Positions 1 through 11,115 of a DNA stretch of 39,806 bases are shown one piece after another. A program made the translations under genes and the position numbers. Position 1 is the stretch's first letter. Every line of letters begins with the position of its first letter. The stretch is from Chlamydiales bacterium (GTDB taxonomy: Bacteria; Chlamydiota; Chlamydiia; Chlamydiales; JBDQID01), in the NCBI GenBank assembly GCA_047611865.1, contig JBLFWS010000007.1, forward strand, positions 1-39,806, given 5' to 3'. Under the pieces are notes generated by a model. It was not told the origin of the DNA. It saw only the letters and a program-made list of their open reading frames with translations, and searched no databases.

Positions 1-75
1 TTTCGCGAAATTAAGCGAACGCAAGTTTTGCGATCTTTTGTTCTATTCTGAATGTATCTTGAAAGTATTTATAAG

Positions 76-127
76 AAAAAGTAGCGGCAGTCGGATTTGA
101 ACCAACGACACCCGGATTATGATTCCG
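76..127 (-). repeat. Displaced 3' half of tRNA-Met; att-like direct repeat at the island end distal to the tRNA
   Basis: 52 bp identical to 6066-6117 (aaaaagtagcggcagtcggatttgaaccaacgacacccggattatgattccg). Identity stops inside the anticodon stem. Confidence 0.95.
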
Positions 128-242
128 AGGCATTCAGCTTGATTCATCACGATAGCACACATTCCAACACTTGCCTTAGAGAGGTTTAGGTCTTTTTCAT
201 ATCGACATCTGTCGATTCATAATCGTTGGTATTATAACGAAG

Positions 243-260
243 TGCACCAAAATTGCACCA
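243..260 (+). promoter_or_regulatory. TGCACCA-N4-TGCACCA tandem repeat, putative integrase arm-type binding site
   Basis: tgcaccaaaattgcacca, about 115 bp inside the left att. The same motif recurs at 2193-2210 and 5982-5999. Confidence 0.6.
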
Positions 261-377
261 AAAAAAATAAGCGAAAAGGTCAGGGAGTGTGTTACTTTTT
301 CAGAAGAGAGAGTTCTTTGCCAGTACATAGTTACTGGAAGACCTAACTGAAAAAAATCTGAAACTGGAGCTTGAAAA

Positions 378-545
378 ATGATGAATGGCGGAATCGAATT
401 GTGAAGTAAAAGTTCTATTGAAGCCTATATTTTTGCTTGTAAATGTAAGAAAGCTTTTTCTCACCCATTACCGATAGCATTTTTTAAAGACGGTGTTTTT
501 AAATGCCCATGTTGTGCGATAGACATCACATTTTTTATGAAGTAG
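378..545 (+). pseudogene. Possible small zinc-ribbon protein interrupted by an in-frame TGA
   Basis: My translation: MMNGGIEL*SKSSIEAYIFACKCKKAFSHPLPIAFFKDGVFKCPCCAIDITFFMK*. CxC...CPCC pattern; GGAG lies upstream. Confidence 0.3.
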
Positions 546-588
546 GGTTCCAAAAATGTGGCTCTAAGCATTTGAAGATCTTTCTGTT

Positions 589-1454
589 TTAGTTTAGGAA
601 TATTGTTTCTTTTAGAAACTCATTGATTACTTTGATAAGGTCTTCGATGTTAACAGGGAGACTTTTCTCATCAATTAGTGTGGGGTGAAGTTTTGAGAGA
701 AAGGGTTTCCAGTATTCTTGTAAGGTATTGGTTTCTTCCTCATTAAAATTGATAGGGAGTTCTAGCGGGATTTCTCGATGAGAAAAGACTGTTTCGATAA
801 CCTGTTTCGTTTTGTTAGCCTCTAATAGACCGGTTTCTTTTGTCATTAAAAACAGATCGAAAAAATCTTTCATTCGACTGTTGCTGCCTCCTCTTGACAC
901 TACCGTTTCAAGTTTTTCAGCAAATATGAATTCTGGAGGGTAGCAACTAAGTTCAATTTTGAGATCCGGAAAGACATCATTATTGAGATGAGTTAGTTCT
1001 ATTTCTCTTTCTATGGGATCTACAAGGTCTCCAAAGCCAAGGTCGATGGTAATTTTGAATCGAGTATTACCGAAATTTCCTTTTAAGCTGACTTGGGTTC
1101 CTGGGTAAAGCATGTGGAAATGGGTCAGAGGGTCTATTTCAACGTCAGAAAAGGAAAAGTGATCTTGAAGGTCAATTGTAGCAATTTCATTGAAAACTTT
1201 TTGAAGTGTTTCCGATTCATTTTTCAGTTTTCGAACTAAAAAGTCCAAGTCACGGGTTTCACGTCCAAGTTCCATATATGTGGTGAGAAGTATGCCGCTC
1301 TTTAGGATGAAATGTTAAGAATGGGGCGATAGAGAAATTCTAGCTAATATGCGTTCCAAGGCTATGAGCTGCCATAGTTCTGCGGTATTGATGCCTCTTT
1401 GTTTTGCTGCGTTACGTACTTTTGCTTTAAAGGATTTTCTAGTGATGTGGTCAT
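589..1454 (-). pseudogene. abiEii: AbiEii-family nucleotidyltransferase toxin (type IV TA), inactivated
   Basis: The 589-1275 ORF has R-x-T-x-D-x-D (RETRDLDF), AEKL and NSRMKDFFDL motifs. The natural start ATG at 1454 overlaps the abiEi stop. The N-terminus is broken by a frameshift (about 1435-1438) and a TAA (1315-1317). Confidence 0.9.
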
Positions 1455-2047
1455 GTGGTTATAGCTTCGATATAGGGTTTTAGGTCAACTCTGAGTATCT
1501 TGGCGTATTTAGAAAGTTTGGGTAAATTAGGTTTGTGGTTCTTACTTTTTTTTAGGTAATTTTGAAGAGCTTTTACGGCTGTTTCTTTATCTAAATATCG
1601 GAAACAGTCAATGACTGTTCGTTCCCTATCGAAAATTCTAACCTCGTACTCTCCAATGAGTAACTTAAGAGTCCCAAGGCTTGTATTACGCATGCGAATT
1701 ATTCTGGTATTTTCTCGTTTTGGAGCGCGGGCTCTGTGGGGGACTGCTATCCAATAATCGCGCATGAATTCGTCAGTAAGGTCGTAATAACATAATGCTG
1801 AGACAAGGCAGATTATGGCTTCTGGTATACTTGATGAGATTAAGGCTAAATCTTCCCACTGGGGATCAGCAACGGATTCAAATTCAGCTGAGCGGTATAC
1901 GCCTCGGCTAACACGTTTTAAGTAACCCTTTTCATAGAAGTAAATTAACATTCTAGGGGGAATTCCAGCCTTCTTCGCTTCCGAGCTTGTGAAAGAAGGT
2001 TTCTTGAAAAGGGGCTTGATGTATTGCCAATACTTTGATCTATCCAT
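1451..2047 (-). CDS. abiEi: AbiEi-family antitoxin / transcriptional regulator (type IV TA)
   Basis: N-terminal wHTH (LKRVSRGVY), ICLVSALCYYDLTD and FDRERTVIDCFRY motifs; translationally coupled to abiEii. Confidence 0.93.
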   Translation of the reverse strand: MDRSKYWQYIKPLFKKPSFTSSEAKKAGIPPRMLIYFYEKGYLKRVSRGVYRSAEFESVADPQWEDLALISSSIPEAIICLVSALCYYDLTDEFMRDYWIAVPHRARAPKRENTRIIRMRNTSLGTLKLLIGEYEVRIFDRERTVIDCFRYLDKETAVKALQNYLKKSKNHKPNLPKLSKYAKILRVDLKPYIEAITT

Positions 2048-2052
2048 GTAAT

Positions 2053-2103
2053 AAATGTAACAGACGCACCCAAAGTGGTCAATTGGGTGCGTCTGTTACA
2101 TTT
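2053..2103 (-). promoter_or_regulatory. abiE operator/promoter: perfect 21-bp inverted repeat overlapping a sigma70-type promoter
   Basis: aaatgtaacagacgcacccaa-N9-ttgggtgcgtctgttacattt. On the minus strand TTGACC-N17-TACATT ends 7 bp before the ATG. Confidence 0.88.
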
Positions 2104-2170
2104 TTATAGGCTGAAATCCCCATAATTTAGAGCATAGCTATAATAGGTATTAGTTAGAGATGGGGTGTTT

Positions 2171-2210
2171 GACTTGCTTATTTGAAAGCAACTGCACCAA
2201 ATTTGCACCA
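2171..2210 (+). repeat. 40-bp direct repeat, copy 1 (identical to 5960-5999)
   Basis: gacttgcttatttgaaagcaactgcaccaaatttgcacca; contains a TTGCTT-N6-AAGCAA palindrome plus TGCACCA twice. Confidence 0.95.
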
Positions 2211-2407
2211 AAAATTTTTAGAAGGTACGCGGATACATGTACACAGGTTTATTCGTACATTGCCCACTTTTTCCACCTAAAAATCTTTGAAAGAAAGAGG
2301 TGTAATATTATACGTATTGTCTCAGAAGGACTTGGAAGAGTCTTTTTCTGAATAACCTGAGGGGATGTATAACATGTACTGTAAAATATGGGGAGCATAG
2401 ATAGGGA

Positions 2408-2626
2408 ATGAGCTGGAATTTTGATGTAATCAGAGGACAACTCACCAATGGGATTGATGTATCCGTGGAAGGGTTTCGAGGGGGAAAAGTACCTGTTGAG
2501 GATCCCTCTGATGAAAATAGCAAAGAAGAGTTAATTATTGATCCTGAAGTTAACACGAACTTGCAAAGTATTTTTAGTATTAATGCGGAAATGGCAGCTA
2601 GCGTTCAGAAAAGGAGCCTGGTGTAG
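2408..2626 (+). CDS. Hypothetical acidic 72-aa ORF; probably the N-terminal fragment of a frameshifted larger gene
   Basis: AGGGA lies upstream. The frame of the next ORF is already open from 2602, overlapping its end. Confidence 0.5.
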   Translation: MSWNFDVIRGQLTNGIDVSVEGFRGGKVPVEDPSDENSKEELIIDPEVNTNLQSIFSINAEMAASVQKRSLV

Positions 2627-2670
2627 TTAAGGAAAAAACTTTAGGAGAGGCGATTGTTTCTAGAGTTTCA

Positions 2671-3591
2671 ATGCTGCAAATTAAGCTGCTTGAGTATTAT
2701 CAGGGACTGGGGGCGCAGTTTCGAGAGGCCGTTCAAGGTGGCCATTGTGATTTTCTTTTAGTTCTAGCAACTGTATTTAATTCAATTCAACGTAGAGATT
2801 TACCTTCCTTATTTCCGGGAATATTCAGTAATGAAGATTTATATGACAATTTGCTAGGTAGTTGGGAACGGTATGAAGTTAATGCAATGAATTATCTGGA
2901 GCTTGCAGAAAACTGTCTTCAGGCATCTAAAATATGTGAATCAGGTACTTATATTCATGATGATGACGTTTCCAGGCAAGAAAAGGAACTTTGTAAGAAT
3001 CATAATATTCAGAGTAATAAAAAATCAGATGCTCAAGTGGAAAGGAGGGAGGAAGCAGAAAGGGCTTTTTCAGAACTTCGTGAGTTAGAACGTAATATTA
3101 ATGCAAAAACTGGAGATACGCAAAAAGAAGAAAGTAAGCAGCTAGGTAGTTTTGTAGATGAGTGGATAGAGGTGGTTTGCAAACCTATAGATGAGTTAAC
3201 TGGGGAGCTTGAAGAGGACTTAAACAGTATTTCTTTGGTAGTAACGACCTTGGAAAAAGAGTATCAAGTGATAAAAGGTGAGTACAATGAAAAGATTGAC
3301 GATTTGCATTTGCAGCAAAGAGAAAAGAATGAGCGAATGCAGGAGGAATTGGCTGCTCTCCGAATAGCCTGGGAAGTAATAAGGGAGGGAGCTAAAAGAG
3401 AAAGAGATAGCATAAAAATGGGATATGAGGATGAGATAAATACTCTTACAAAAGAGCTGGACAATCTTCGTGAAGCTTATTGGGATCCCTCAGATGATGA
3501 GGAGTTGAAAGTTTTAAACCTTCAGAAAGCTGCTCTTTCATACAAGATTATGTATTTGACAATGAAGACGATGATGCATGGATTATGGTAA
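2671..3591 (+). CDS. Hypothetical E/K-rich coiled-coil protein; probably the middle fragment of a larger gene
   Basis: 306 aa with a heptad-rich C-terminal half. The last residues (MYLTMKTMMHGLW) look out of frame. Confidence 0.7.
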   Translation: MLQIKLLEYYQGLGAQFREAVQGGHCDFLLVLATVFNSIQRRDLPSLFPGIFSNEDLYDNLLGSWERYEVNAMNYLELAENCLQASKICESGTYIHDDDVSRQEKELCKNHNIQSNKKSDAQVERREEAERAFSELRELERNINAKTGDTQKEESKQLGSFVDEWIEVVCKPIDELTGELEEDLNSISLVVTTLEKEYQVIKGEYNEKIDDLHLQQREKNERMQEELAALRIAWEVIREGAKRERDSIKMGYEDEINTLTKELDNLREAYWDPSDDEELKVLNLQKAALSYKIMYLTMKTMMHGLW

Positions 3592-4823
3592 ATCAATATT
3601 TCATCAGTAATCCTAAAGCTAGTGTGGTGTTAACAAAGCTGGGGCAAGTTAGTTTATACTATGGGAAGCTGAATGAGGCATACAAATTGTTTTACGATGC
3701 GATTCACTGTGATGAGAATAGCGAACTCCCAAGAATCTTCCGGGCATCTGTGCTTAGAGAAAAGGGAAGGTTTAAAAGAGCTCTAAAAGAACTAAAAAAC
3801 ACTGTATGGGGGGATTATGATGAATCGAAAAATATTGGTTTGTATTTAGAACTTGCTTGTATTCATATTGAACTTAAGCAATTTGATAAAGCAATTAAGG
3901 AAATAAACAATGCTATTGAGAAGGATCCTAATAATATTTCTTTGTATTTAGATCGGGCTGCAATTTACGATTTTAACAATGAACCAGAGAAGGCGGCACA
4001 AGATATTGCGCAAGTAAGTAAAATGGAGAAAAAAGATTTCTTTAAACCCGATTATGCTACCTGCCTACTGAACAGGATAGGATCAAGGGTTGCTAGCTGC
4101 CCTCAAGATTTGTTAGCGAAAAAGATTTACGAACAAATTCAGGAAGAAAGAAAGAGGGATCCTTTTTATTCCGGAGAGTTCGAACAATTTTCTTTAGAGA
4201 AATCTGAACGCTTTGATTTGGAGATTATTGATATTTCAGGATTGGGAATAGGTTGGGTCAATGGGATTAAAAATTCGGAGAGCGGTTCGAAAGCAAATGC
4301 AAAAATGTTGTCCGAAATGGCTGGAGGTTTGAATATACACGGTGTCTACAATGCCAGCCATGGTTTTAGGTTAGATTTAATAGAGTGTTTATTAGGCTTG
4401 TCAAATGTTTCTACAGAACCAGTCAAAAATCTGCATGGCACTTGGAATGACTTTTTCAAAAATAATCCTGATGATGCTGTTTTTTTACAAGTTTGTCATA
4501 GTCAAGGAGCTATACATGTAAGGAATGCTTTGGAGAAATATCCAGAGGAGCTTCGCAAAAGAATACAGGTAGTTGCTGTTGCTCCTGCAGCTTATATTTC
4601 GGCAGATCTCTGTTTAAAGGTAGACCATTATACATCCTCGAGAGATTTCATTCCGTGGATTGATTATGAAGGTAGAGATGAGTGTCAAGAGACAATTCAT
4701 GTACTTTCTGGAAATGGATTTTGGGATCATAGTTTTGATAGTATTACCTATAGGGATGTTCTTGAGGGTCATATTCAGGATTATATCGAACAATACGGAA
4801 ATAAAATAAAAGGAGTCGCATAA
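3585..4823 (+). CDS. TPR protein with C-terminal alpha/beta-hydrolase domain (chlamydial DUF687-like, lipase-type)
   Basis: TPR helices in the first approx. 150 aa, then WVNGIKN, nucleophile elbow CHSQGA (HSQGA at 4497-4511), RDFIP and DHSF, a candidate Ser-Asp-His triad. Confidence 0.8.
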   Translation: MVNQYFISNPKASVVLTKLGQVSLYYGKLNEAYKLFYDAIHCDENSELPRIFRASVLREKGRFKRALKELKNTVWGDYDESKNIGLYLELACIHIELKQFDKAIKEINNAIEKDPNNISLYLDRAAIYDFNNEPEKAAQDIAQVSKMEKKDFFKPDYATCLLNRIGSRVASCPQDLLAKKIYEQIQEERKRDPFYSGEFEQFSLEKSERFDLEIIDISGLGIGWVNGIKNSESGSKANAKMLSEMAGGLNIHGVYNASHGFRLDLIECLLGLSNVSTEPVKNLHGTWNDFFKNNPDDAVFLQVCHSQGAIHVRNALEKYPEELRKRIQVVAVAPAAYISADLCLKVDHYTSSRDFIPWIDYEGRDECQETIHVLSGNGFWDHSFDSITYRDVLEGHIQDYIEQYGNKIKGVA

Positions 4824-5362
4824 TGCGAGCTATTCTTGGATTTATTTTCGCAGTGATCTTGGTTTTCATTATTCCTTCTTGTTCAGGAGATAGTCATCAA
4901 CTTTCCGAAAAAGAGAGCTTTGGCTACAAAATTATTGGTACTACCGCAAAGGTTCTGGAGAAAAGATACAAACTTCAGGTTATTGGATCGGGGGCAAGTA
5001 TGCCTGATATGGTCAGATCACTAAATATTCATTTTAGAATTGATCGGCCTATAGAGAAGTTGGAGGCCCGAAAGATTATCGTAGATTGTGCATCCGAATT
5101 GATAAAAAACATGAACAATTCGGAGGTTATTAGGCCATATTTGCAAAACTACCCAGTAACAAGTCAAAATATCGAAGTAACACTATTTAGTTATTATCCT
5201 GATGGAAGCAGGGTATACTTTCCCCTTGTACACTCGGTTGCTGTTAGGCGAGGGGGAATTGCCTTTTTTACAAAAGATCCAGAACATGAGTTTGGCTATA
5301 AAACAGAAGAGTATGAAACATTTGAAGAGGCTCTGGAAATCTTAAAACAGGACAAAAAATGA
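4823..5362 (+). CDS. Putative lipoprotein, candidate immunity protein
   Basis: Signal peptide with lipobox-like IIPSC (Cys20); TAATG stop/start overlap with the hydrolase gene. Confidence 0.75.
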   Translation: MRAILGFIFAVILVFIIPSCSGDSHQLSEKESFGYKIIGTTAKVLEKRYKLQVIGSGASMPDMVRSLNIHFRIDRPIEKLEARKIIVDCASELIKNMNNSEVIRPYLQNYPVTSQNIEVTLFSYYPDGSRVYFPLVHSVAVRRGGIAFFTKDPEHEFGYKTEEYETFEEALEILKQDKK

Positions 5363-5850
5363 GTCGCAGTCTCGATAGAGAAGAAGTTAGTGACTTTTGT
5401 GCAAAAAAAGATAAGGTTATAGGGCATCTTCAAATAGTGTTATGGGGCATCTTGTCAGTTCTAACATTGACGGTAGCCTTTTGCTTCCTTAATCTATTCT
5501 ATTTGAGTTATTCCAACGGACTTTCTATGAGCGTGATGGCGGATGGGATTGTCATTTTATGTTTATTTACCTGTATGAGGTTTATAAATCCTGGAGTGAT
5601 AAGGTTTTTTTGCGATCTTGTTTATAAGTATCCATCTTCCAAAAGAATGAGGTTGTTAAAAACTTTTTCAGTTCTGTTATTTTGTCCCTTGGTTTGGATT
5701 TTTCTTGTTTCATTATCCAGTATTTTTTGTGCTCTTTATGTTGAAGCTGTGGGGTTGAGTGTTTCTTCAGAGATGATGTACACGTTGTTATCTCCGATTT
5801 CGATGTTTTTCTTACTTTTCTTAAGAATAAGGCTTTGGTGGTTTTTTTGA
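5359..5850 (+). CDS. Hypothetical membrane protein (about 4 TM)
   Basis: Four hydrophobic segments; ATGA overlap with the upstream gene. Confidence 0.65.
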   Translation: MSRSLDREEVSDFCAKKDKVIGHLQIVLWGILSVLTLTVAFCFLNLFYLSYSNGLSMSVMADGIVILCLFTCMRFINPGVIRFFCDLVYKYPSSKRMRLLKTFSVLLFCPLVWIFLVSLSSIFCALYVEAVGLSVSSEMMYTLLSPISMFFLLFLRIRLWWFF

Positions 5851-5959
5851 AGTCAACGTTCGACAACGAAATGTTGTTCTATGACCATGAATTGTTGTCG
5901 AAAAGGGAGAGGCAAGTTTTGTTTTGGGGATGGGGTGGCTCTCAATCCACGGGCTTTTA

Positions 5960-5999
5960 GACTTGCTTATTTGAAAGCAACTGCACCAAATTTGCACCA
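5960..5999 (+). repeat. 40-bp direct repeat, copy 2; arm-like region next to the tRNA-proximal att
   Basis: Identical to 2171-2210; ends 66 bp before the att repeat. Confidence 0.95.
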
Positions 6000-6071
6000 T
6001 TTTACAAGTGGCTGTGGCTTGTTGACGCTGAATTGGAACTATAAGTTATTGGAGATAAGAAAGATAAAAAG

Positions 6072-6145
6072 TAGCGGCAGTCGGATTTGAACCAACGACA
6101 CCCGGATTATGATTCCGGTGCTCTAACCAACTGAGCTATGCCGCC
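6072..6145 (-). tRNA. tRNA-Met(CAT), elongator-type; island integration site
   Basis: GGCGGCATAGCTCAGTTGGTTAGAGCACCGGAATCATAATCCGGGTGTCGTTGGTTCAAATCCGACTGCCGCTA folds as a cloverleaf; CCA not encoded. Confidence 0.95.
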
Positions 6146-6154
6146 AAGAAAAAA

Positions 6155-6227
6155 TAGCGGGGAGAGGATTCGAACCTCCGACCTTTGGGTTATGAGCCCA
6201 ACGAGCTAACCCCTGCTCCACCCCGCG
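6155..6227 (-). tRNA. Initiator tRNA-fMet(CAT)
   Basis: CGCGGGG 5' end with C1:72 mismatch, three G-C pairs in the anticodon stem (TTGGG CTCATAA CCCAA), GGTTCGAATCC T-arm. Confidence 0.95.
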
Positions 6228-6287
6228 ATAAGGCTTTCTTCTATCGGGTTTCGTAAAGAAGAAGGTGTGAATATAGCAAGGGTGGGG

Positions 6288-9798: not shown

Positions 9799-11115
9799 AT
9801 GAAGTTTACGAGTACTAACAAAATTAGCCCTGAGGTTTCTTTAAAAGATGCTATCATGCAAGGAATGCCAGAGGATAAGGGTCTATATATGCCCAAGTCC
9901 ATACCTGTGATTCAAGAATCTTTTTTTCAGGAAATCAGGTCTGATTCCTGGGAAAGAATTTGTGAAACCGTAGCGGGGGCTTTTTTTTCTGGTGATGTTT
10001 CCAGAGATGTTTTGAAAGAACTTATTCATGAAGCATTGAATTTTGAAGCTCCTCTCGTAAAGATTTCTGAAGGTATTCATTGCCTCGAACTTTTTCATGG
10101 TCCTACTCAAGCCTTCAAGGATTTCGGTGCCCGCTTTATGGCGAGACTCATGGGATATTATCGTAAAGACGATGATGAAGATCTTCATATTCTTGTGGCG
10201 ACTTCAGGGGATACGGGTAGTGCTGTGGGTCATGGTTTTCTTGGGGTGAAAGGAATTAAGGTGTGGATCTTGTACCCGAAGGGAAAGGTTTCTTTAATTC
10301 AGGAGAAGCAGCTGACAACTCTGGGGCAGAATATTACCGCTTTGGAAATAGAGGGTACTTTCGACGATTGCCAAAATCTGGTGAAAGAGGCTTTTACTGA
10401 CAGTGAGCTTCGGAAGCAGGTTTTGATGACTTCGGCAAACTCTATAAATTTCGCACGCCTGTTGCCTCAAGTATTCTATTATATACACGCTTTTACTCAA
10501 TTGGAGGACCGAGGAATCCCTATGGTCTTCTCGGTGCCTAGTGGTAACTTTGGAAATCTCGTTGCGGGCTTATTTGCGGAAAGGTTAGGTCTACCGGTGG
10601 AACATTTTGTTGCCGCGACTAATATTAACGACGCGGTGCCTGAATATTTCAAAACGGGATTGTTTCGACCGCGCCCTTCTGTGCAGACGATTTCGAATTC
10701 TATGGATGTGGGAAATCCGAGTAATTTCGGGAGGATGTTGGCACTTTTTGATAATGATTTAGGAGCTATGCAACGAGAAATTTACGGCTGTAGCTTTACC
10801 GATGAGGAGACCAGGGCTGCCATTGTGGAGGTCTACCAAAATAATGGATATATTATGGACACTCATGGAGCGGTGGGATATCTAGGCTTAAAAGAATATA
10901 CGAAAACCTTGTCTCATCCAGTAAATGGGATTTTTTTGGGGACGGCTCATCCAGCTAAGTTTCTTGACGAAGTACAGCCTCTTATTCAAGAGCCTATAGA
11001 GATGCCAAAAAGTCTTCAGGAGTCTATGGGGAAACCTAAAAAATCAGAAGTTCTTCCAGCGGATTACAAATCTTTTAGGGCTTTTTTATTAGAAAGGTCC
11101 AAGTCCAAAGTATAG
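9799..11115 (+). CDS. thrC: Threonine synthase
   Basis: ELFHGPTQAFKDFG (PLP lysine), ATSGDTG, VPSGNFGN, TAHPAKF. Confidence 0.98.
   Translation: MKFTSTNKISPEVSLKDAIMQGMPEDKGLYMPKSIPVIQESFFQEIRSDSWERICETVAGAFFSGDVSRDVLKELIHEALNFEAPLVKISEGIHCLELFHGPTQAFKDFGARFMARLMGYYRKDDDEDLHILVATSGDTGSAVGHGFLGVKGIKVWILYPKGKVSLIQEKQLTTLGQNITALEIEGTFDDCQNLVKEAFTDSELRKQVLMTSANSINFARLLPQVFYYIHAFTQLEDRGIPMVFSVPSGNFGNLVAGLFAERLGLPVEHFVAATNINDAVPEYFKTGLFRPRPSVQTISNSMDVGNPSNFGRMLALFDNDLGAMQREIYGCSFTDEETRAAIVEVYQNNGYIMDTHGAVGYLGLKEYTKTLSHPVNGIFLGTAHPAKFLDEVQPLIQEPIEMPKSLQESMGKPKKSEVLPADYKSFRAFLLERSKSKV

Follow-up and report, generated by a model that had tools for sequence, protein, structure and literature searches.

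The repeat and its setting

The DNA analysed here, referred to below as the window, is the first 39.8 kb (39,806 nt) of contig C7 from a Chlamydiota genome of 3.59 Mb in 272 contigs. Near its beginning lies a genomic island (128–6065) at a tRNA-Met gene, bounded by a 52-nt exact direct repeat, and a 40-bp sequence found at the tRNA-proximal end of this island recurs, without a single difference, in its interior. The internal copy separates two blocks of cargo genes, an AbiE module and a block that encodes a TPR and DUF687-like protein. The boundaries and repeats of the island are as follows.

1–75: chromosomal flank outside the island, on the downstream side of the original tRNA-Met site
76–127, minus strand: displaced tRNA-Met 3' fragment plus 5 nt, the distal core copy; a 52-nt exact direct repeat of 6066–6117
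128–242: P-arm spacer of 115 nt between the core and the distal doublet, with the spacing seen in relatives
243–260, plus strand: predicted distal arm-type doublet, TGCACCA-AAAT-TGCACCA, then an A run; assigned by pattern match and by the layout of relatives
2159–2170, plus strand: diverged inner continuation of the repeat, GATGGGGTG and then 6/9 matches
2171–2210, plus strand: internal 40-mer (dyad 2174–2191, doublet 2193–2210), an exact copy of 5960–5999; its parts are TTGCTT (2174–2179), six bases, AAGCAA (2186–2191), one base and TGCACCA-AATT-TGCACCA (2193–2210)
5951–5999, plus strand: predicted tRNA-proximal (P') outer arm, with dyad and doublet (5982–5999), then TTTT; its position relative to the tRNA is that of 25 proximal sites of relatives
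6000–6065: spacer of 66 nt between the proximal doublet and the core
6066–6145, minus strand: tRNA-Met gene (6071–6145), whose 3' 47 nt and the 5 nt downstream (6066–6117) form the proximal core copy
6154–6228, minus strand: second tRNA-Met gene; the same tandem tRNA-Met pair bears an integrase-carrying island in the relative L037

The 40-bp repeat had been pointed out in a first-pass annotation made from the sequence alone, together with the TTGCTT-N6-AAGCAA dyad and the two TGCACCA heptamers in each copy, the string GATGGGGTG ahead of the copies at different distances, and the lack of a tRNA fragment beside the internal copy. Direct reading and a repeat comparison bear out all of these points. 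The two copies are identical over all 40 bases, and weaker homology reaches back to 2162 and 5951, so that 2162–2210 and 5951–5999 form a 49-nt repeat of 94% identity (repeat family D2). At the other end the homology breaks off abruptly where the second heptamer ends. The string GATGGGGTG is found at 2159–2167, 3 nt ahead of the internal 40-mer, and at 5929–5937, 22 nt ahead of the other copy; the identity is thus a mosaic, with 40/40 matches beside 6/9 and an apparent 19-nt indel. The 37-mer running from the dyad to the second heptamer matches twice in the window, against 0.00 matches expected from 100 shuffles. The pair of heptamers, which we call a doublet, occurs a third time as TGCACCAAAATTGCACCA at 243–260, 115 nt inside the tRNA fragment 76–127 (three window matches, 0.00 expected). 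All three doublets point in one direction. Those at the two island ends lie 115 nt inward of the distal fragment and 66 nt inward of the core copy at the tRNA gene; the third stands in mid-island, where no tRNA fragment is found within 260 nt, tRNA-related sequence being confined to 76–127, 6071–6145 and 6154–6228. The open reading frames (ORFs) crossing the two 40-mers (2160–2351 and 5881–6090) contain them in different reading frames, and the 40-mer is therefore not a conserved coding sequence. Rfam finds nothing at the repeats; its matches are the tRNAs and sub-threshold hairpin noise at 2051–2107.

A family of doublets at chlamydial tRNA islands

The first-pass annotation had suggested a search for the 40-mer and its dyad near tRNA genes; what recurs as a family feature is the doublet. 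Neither the 40-mer nor the doublet has a further occurrence elsewhere in the source genome. Among 401 Chlamydiota genomes, however, 57 contain the doublet pattern TGCACCANNNNTGCACCA, with 120 matches in all, and none matches the reversed pattern used as a control. The picture that recurs is an inverted pair of doublets, 60–170 nt apart, beside a tRNA gene, and a lone doublet kilobases away. On the tRNA side the order is tRNA 3' end, 65–100 nt, doublet, 60–170 nt, inverted doublet, 100–210 nt, an integrase gene reading away, and cargo; on the far side a partly conserved spacer of about 115 nt separates the distal doublet from a tRNA 3' fragment. The tRNAs at the 20 fetched regions are those for Met, Tyr, Asn and Thr, and the cargo includes Fic, HipA, AbiE, ABC and primase/helicase genes as well as genes without a recognised family.

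A tRNA T-arm is found no more than 260 nt away, and at discrete distances, for 46 of the 70 distinct doublets in the fetched loci (26 proximal sites, 19 distal ones and one that is both), as compared with 168 of 2000 random positions in the same loci; the 24 others include 15 inverted inner partners of a pair. Most listed distal sites have the start of the T-arm 148–150 nt before the doublet, and proximal sites have it 63–101 nt after the doublet; the window, with values of 149 and 84 nt, conforms to both. The start of an integrase gene reading away follows 11 of the 16 inverted-doublet sites at 102–211 nt, the other five having lost it, and the integrases of the relatives belong to PF00589. 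The inner end of the fragment 76–127 lies at the anticodon-loop region, as it does in the relatives, and the sequence that their two island ends have in common is the tRNA 3' fragment and not the flanks of the doublets. The complete arrangement is present in L037, from another family, where a doublet, an inverted doublet, an integrase gene, cargo, a distal doublet and a tRNA-Met fragment follow one another at the same tandem tRNA-Met locus.

Two mini-islands of about 1–1.4 kb were also encountered, L036 (G257:C1, ~901000–902600) and L028 (G227:C93), which have both arms and a tRNA gene but lack an integrase. Where L036 would be expected to have its distal tRNA fragment, there is a gene for a group II intron reverse transcriptase. 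In addition, the integrase leader contains a small hairpin about 75 nt upstream of the start (L037:8830–8860 and L035:11230–11260; loci L075–L154), whose 5-bp stem is that of the anticodon stem of the targeted tRNA and whose 7-nt loop differs. This hairpin agrees with the arm of its own tRNA at 13 or more of 17 positions in 7 of 43 loci; for the arms of other tRNAs the count is 21 of 1640. The hairpin may be an RNA element, or a pseudo-core site through which the integrase regulates its own gene.

Integrases and heptamer variants

The integrase of this family is a protein of about 355 aa whose best solved sequence relative is the HP1 integrase (1aih); lambda Int aligns with it from residue 62. 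An AlphaFold model (predicted local distance difference test score, pLDDT, 86) places three strands and a helix in residues 2–50 (strands 2–8, 14–20 and 28–32; helix 35–50; pLDDT about 80–90), ahead of the core-binding and catalytic domains; 354 columns are covered when the model is aligned with the whole of lambda Int (1z1b_A). Pfam has no family over residues 1–60. The integrase belongs to a very large family: of 8000 proteins scored, 6374 reach E ≤ 1e-20. According to their record titles, relatives with 50–59% identity come from Legionella, Coxiella, Rickettsiales, methanotrophs, nitrifiers, Desulfuromonadales and Verrucomicrobiota, while phage integrases are only about 32% identical.

In 35 of 80 loci of this wider family, a direct pair and an inverted pair of a 7-mer lie upstream of the integrase gene with a spacer of 4 nt (3 nt in one case), and the 7-mer differs between subfamilies that share this layout (TGGGACA, TGGCGCA, TGGCACA, TGGGGCA and others). 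We compared the 7-mers with residue 19 of the integrase, located in strand 2 of the N-terminal domain, in 21 classed loci representing five 7-mer classes and one geometry. The residue is Q in all loci with TGGTGCA (5/5) and TGGCACA (2/2), K in all those with TGGGACA (8/8) and TGGGGCA (1/1), and D or E in the five with TGGCGCA. This pattern suggests that residue 19 behaves as a base-reading residue would, with the kinship of the loci confounding the co-variation. At one locus, L042, a TGCACCA doublet and a TGTACCG doublet are found on either side of a single tRNA-Met fragment; specificity would therefore belong to the element and not to the host. A literature search with TGCACCA and "arm-type" found no printed account of the TGCACCA motif (twice, 11 bp apart) with the three-cluster layout.

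Origin of the internal copy

It is probable, in our judgement, that the 40-mer is a leftover integrase arm site and that its internal copy is the scar of stacked, partly fused islands behind tRNA-Met. The doublets themselves are most likely arm-type integrase binding sites, because the 7-mer tracks an integrase residue within the same layout and because they lie outside the shared tRNA core at unequal, fixed distances. As far as sequence comparison can tell, the crossover site is the 52-nt tRNA-Met fragment (76–127 = 6066–6117) and not the 40-mer. The latter would belong to the tRNA-proximal arm used by tyrosine integrases of the lambda/HP1 type that insert islands into the 3' halves of tRNA genes. 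At its TGCACCA heptamers, the predicted arm-type sites, the integrase would bind with its small N-terminal domain; being 11 bp apart, the heptamers would face one side of the helix.

We infer the following course of events. An AbiE island and a TPR/DUF687 island would have been stacked at the same tRNA-Met gene, their middle junction originally consisting of two direct 18-bp doublets with a 52-nt core between them, 66 nt from the first doublet and 115 nt from the second. Through recombination or slippage between these doublets, about 251 bp may then have been lost, and the product would be a single hybrid doublet (2193–2210) with a left flank of the proximal type and a right flank of the distal type. 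Such a composite could be excised only as a whole, via the outer cores and with an integrase acting in trans, and the block 2211–5999 could be lost only through rare homologous recombination between the 40–49-bp repeats. The island 128–6065 is thus best read as an integrase-less, decaying composite of two islands, since it contains no integrase gene and its AbiEii gene is broken.

The flanks of the three doublets are consistent with this course. The proximal copy is followed by TTTTAC, the distal doublet by AAAAAAAA and the internal copy by AAAAATTTTT; the last has the left flank and spacer of the proximal copy, but the AAAAA right flank seen at 243–260. Among the relatives, T follows 22 of 26 proximal doublets and an A run follows most distal doublets of the Met/Tyr class. 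A middle junction is still intact in L042, where a doublet, about 100 nt, the tRNA-Met fragment, about 118 nt and the TGTACCG doublet are followed by an AbiE module, and stacking with AbiE cargo therefore does occur.

Several observations weigh against this reading. The evidence of the flanks is limited in strength: A or AA follows about half of the distal sites and 4 of 26 proximal ones, which gives a likelihood ratio of only about 3 for a hybrid, and the right flanks of the internal copy and of 243–260 align with a score of 18, not above that of shuffled sequences (19.1 ± 2.4). Both copies of the 40-mer have the same inner limit at GATGGGGTG and have neither an inverted doublet nor an integrase; two independent decays are therefore an uneasy explanation, and a common integrase-less ancestor or later copying is suggested. 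We found no relative with two doublets of identical motif around an intact middle core, and those of L042, being different, cannot recombine with each other. The dyad is not accounted for: perfect dyads of at least 6 bp occur in about 1% of 22-nt windows, so that the one seen here is mildly unusual, although its two copies, identical by descent, count as one observation. With respect to the integrase, the exact TGCACCA doublet occurs in only 5 of 79 wider-family loci, which is why other 7-mers were sought. Besides the kinship of the loci mentioned above, residue 19 is L, and not Q, in 4 of 12 chlamydial integrases with TGCACCA sites. A structure search with the N-terminal domain alone returned tied weak matches (best Z 5.9), among them the AP2/GCC-box domain 2gcc (Z 4.9, root-mean-square deviation 2.5 over 48 residues), and Foldseek found nothing for this domain at E ≤ 0.001. 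Finally, unitig depth in one public sequencing run (X1) is 36.9 over 98–2200 and 55.5 over 2181–5989, with 55.2 and 62.6 in the flanks, a difference that the proposed history does not predict. Nor is it explained by any structural variant that the contig graph would allow.

The first-pass annotation had taken the 40-mer, with the dyad as recombinase core, for the crossover site at which cassettes are added stepwise, and had proposed that 2211–5999 could excise independently. Two exact copies do flank one cargo block, their homology has a sharp end at the second heptamer, the dyad is uncommon by chance, and the internal copy stands apart from any tRNA fragment. However, what the island ends of relatives share is the tRNA 3' fragment, outside which the doublets lie. 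Nor is the dyad a feature of the family, a perfect dyad of at least 6 bp being present at 2 of 25 proximal sites of relatives and in 226 of 3000 random windows (no enrichment), and a metagenome scan with AAGCAANTGCACCANNNNTGCACCA, which includes the right half of the dyad, found eight loci by tRNA/tmRNA ends, none with the TTGCTT half. In addition, the island has no recombinase gene in it or next to it, the 40-mer is confined in this genome to its two copies, and contigs of four public runs contain no joint of 2210 to 6000 (which would skip 2211–5999) or of 127 to 6118; these contigs were built with k=31, break at repeats and drop rare forms, and missing joints therefore show little. We regard a cassette site as very improbable and independent site-specific excision of 2211–5999 as unsupported. 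What stands of the sequential accretion proposed with it is a composite with a seam between two cargo blocks at a tRNA site, with stacks in relatives; integron-like cassettes do not. Equally little credence is due to the view that the doublets are not integrase sites but operators, bound by an island or host regulator of the adjoining genes. The inverted doublets of intact relatives do lie in the integrase promoter region, 100–210 nt upstream of the gene, and the abiE operon has the internal copy 120 nt ahead of it. Yet the distal doublet keeps its 115 nt from the tRNA fragment beside unrelated cargo, different integrase subfamilies have different 7-mers even in a single phylum and at a single locus (TGCACCA beside TGTACCG in L042), and the integrase gene is the only one constantly beside the sites. 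The doublets could be arm-type sites and still serve autoregulation by the integrase.

Two further explanations start from stacked islands. According to one, the internal copy is the intact proximal arm of the AbiE island, and the middle core and distal arm were lost by an unrelated, non-homologous deletion ending at the doublet. This would fit the left flank and the spacer (AAAT), which are those of the proximal copy, only the A run on the right hinting at a distal origin; but an endpoint exactly at the last base of the doublet, before AAAAATTTTTAG at 2211, needs a coincidence, and the distal-type A run would be due to chance. We consider such a deletion unlikely. The other, to which we assign a somewhat lower probability still, is that the 40–49-bp block was copied at a later time by gene conversion or recombination between older, diverged arms, in which case its identity would be silent on how the island was built. 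The mosaic of 40/40 and 6/9 matches with the apparent 19-nt indel is what such copying could produce; two prior arm copies are still required, however, and the proposal therefore modifies the stacking model and does not replace it. A simple tandem island with its middle att deleted, which the first-pass annotation had named as the case contrary to its own proposal, comes close to the reading favoured here, in which the internal copy is the scar of stacked islands.

Cargo genes

The genes and other features between the arms are the following.

589–1460, minus strand: AbiEii toxin gene, broken; PF08843 matches the ORF 589–1275
1451–2047, minus strand: AbiEi antitoxin/regulator gene (PF13338)
2053–2103: perfect inverted repeat (arms of 21 bp, loop of 9 nt) lying 6 nt upstream of the abiEi start
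2408–5850, plus strand: second cargo block, with ORFs 2408–2626, 2671–3591, 3585–4823, 4823–5362 and 5359–5850

The matches to PF08843 and PF13338 agree with the AbiE label given in the first-pass annotation. The AbiEii frame runs on upstream with family-like sequence, in which a TAA near 1317 interrupts the frame and a start codon in frame is missing; the toxin gene is therefore broken. AbiEi, the other half of the module, looks intact. The module shares 43% (AbiEi) and 36% identity with that of L042. The inverted repeat at 2053–2103 may be an AbiEi/abiE operator or a bidirectional terminator.

The second block encodes a coiled-coil-like protein, a protein with TPR and a DUF687-like sequence (3585–4823) and two proteins without a family. 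It had been labelled a toxin-immunity module, a label that is unproven, since Pfam finds only TPR and DUF687 in 2408–5850, NCBIfam only TPR, and neither library a toxin or immunity family. The C-terminal domain of the 3585–4823 product has matches in 213 of 400 Chlamydiales genomes, mostly within ORFs of 1800–2800 aa; on this mobile island the DUF687-like domain (residues ~218–408, with an HSQG motif) belongs to a protein of 412 aa, in which it is fused with the TPR repeats. The AbiE block and the second block lie on opposite strands, with several genes each and their own upstream regions.

Population evidence and possible mobilisation

The same composite is present, with one substitution, in runs of three studies; runs X4 and X5 contributed only small shares, X4 in the form of short pieces at 90–95% likeness. 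Another contig of this genome, C112, closes (10794–10920) with the very 127 bases that open the window. The branch point of the assembly graph therefore coincides with base 127, where the tRNA fragment ends; it hints at another allele, and the metagenome population is probably polymorphic right at this junction of the island. A sister-genus genome (G001, 68% complete) has no doublet by its tandem tRNA-Met genes in the 446 nt available. A similarity of its flank to window 1–75 was considered and dropped, with an alignment score of 26 as against 21.7 ± 2.9 for shuffles.

No ORF in 1–6600 matches PF00589, and no integrase gene lies in or beside the island. In a tblastn search, the family integrase has matches on other contigs only: at C209:1–675, an integrase-family gene is cut by the contig start (residues 1–225), with no TGCACCA doublets upstream, and at C12:34927–35700 there is an internal fragment of the island integrase family, with no TGCACCA doublets beside it. 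It is conceivable, though improbable, that integrase-less blocks keep their doublets as working handles and that a family integrase such as that on C209 moves the fused 6-kb composite in trans, the internal doublet being perhaps a decoy or an architectural site with an influence on which of the two blocks is kept and which is lost. If this were true, environmental chlamydiae would hold a pool of satellite islands, and turnover of this kind would have left its trace in run X1, where the AbiE block has the lower depth.

Comparison with known systems

For the window itself the findings carry little weight, the repeat being read as a scar in a decaying island, a case of ordinary mobile-element decay. 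Of wider use would be the 7-mer of the form TGGNNCA which, present twice 11 bp apart, in three clusters and at fixed distances from a tRNA fragment, serves as an end signature of widespread tRNA-targeting islands. It could be employed to delimit such islands and to recognise their integrase-less remnants in draft genomes, and the tracking of the 7-mer by residue 19 offers a testable recognition rule.

Heterobivalent tyrosine integrases have arm-type sites, such as P1, P2 and P'1–3 of lambda Int, and those of P2 and HP1. The doublets resemble them in being short direct repeats that lie apart from the core, on both arms and at fixed distances. The integrase, too, is like those of lambda and HP1 in having a small N-terminal domain (predicted here by the model), a core-binding domain and a catalytic domain, and the target is, as for HP1, the 3' half of a tRNA gene from the anticodon loop. 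Unlike in lambda and HP1, the sites are TGCACCA pairs 11 bp apart in three clusters, the phage integrases are only distantly similar to the family, and the integrase of the window is gone. Autoregulation of the integrase IntS of prophage KplE1 is the subject of PMC2951348. In that prophage, arm-type sites cover the promoter region of the integrase gene, on the side facing the tRNA junction. The likeness to IntS applies to the intact relatives, the window having no integrase gene to regulate.

The arrangement also recalls integrons with their attI and attC sites, in that units of cargo are parted by a repeated short site holding an inverted repeat. It differs from them in the lack of intI and of a long imperfect palindrome of the attC type, only a 6-bp dyad being present, in the multi-gene blocks on opposite strands with their own upstream regions, and in the tie of the site family to tRNA cores.

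Integrase-less remnants of integrative elements are known as cis-mobilisable elements (CIMEs) from the ICESt1/ICESt3 group. Tandem accretion of integrative elements is reported for the ssrA islands of Dehalococcoides (PMC3146451). The island of the window is like both systems, with successive integrations at one tRNA or tmRNA gene and with att-bounded cargo left without a recombinase; its order is core and P arm (76–260), AbiE block, arm 2162–2210, second block, arm 5951–5999 and core. In rows of CIMEs or ssrA islands, however, each seam keeps a core, whereas the seam in the window appears to keep an arm site only, the blocks on its two sides being fused. Since there is no core at this internal seam, the island is to be compared with a fused composite and not with a row of CIMEs.

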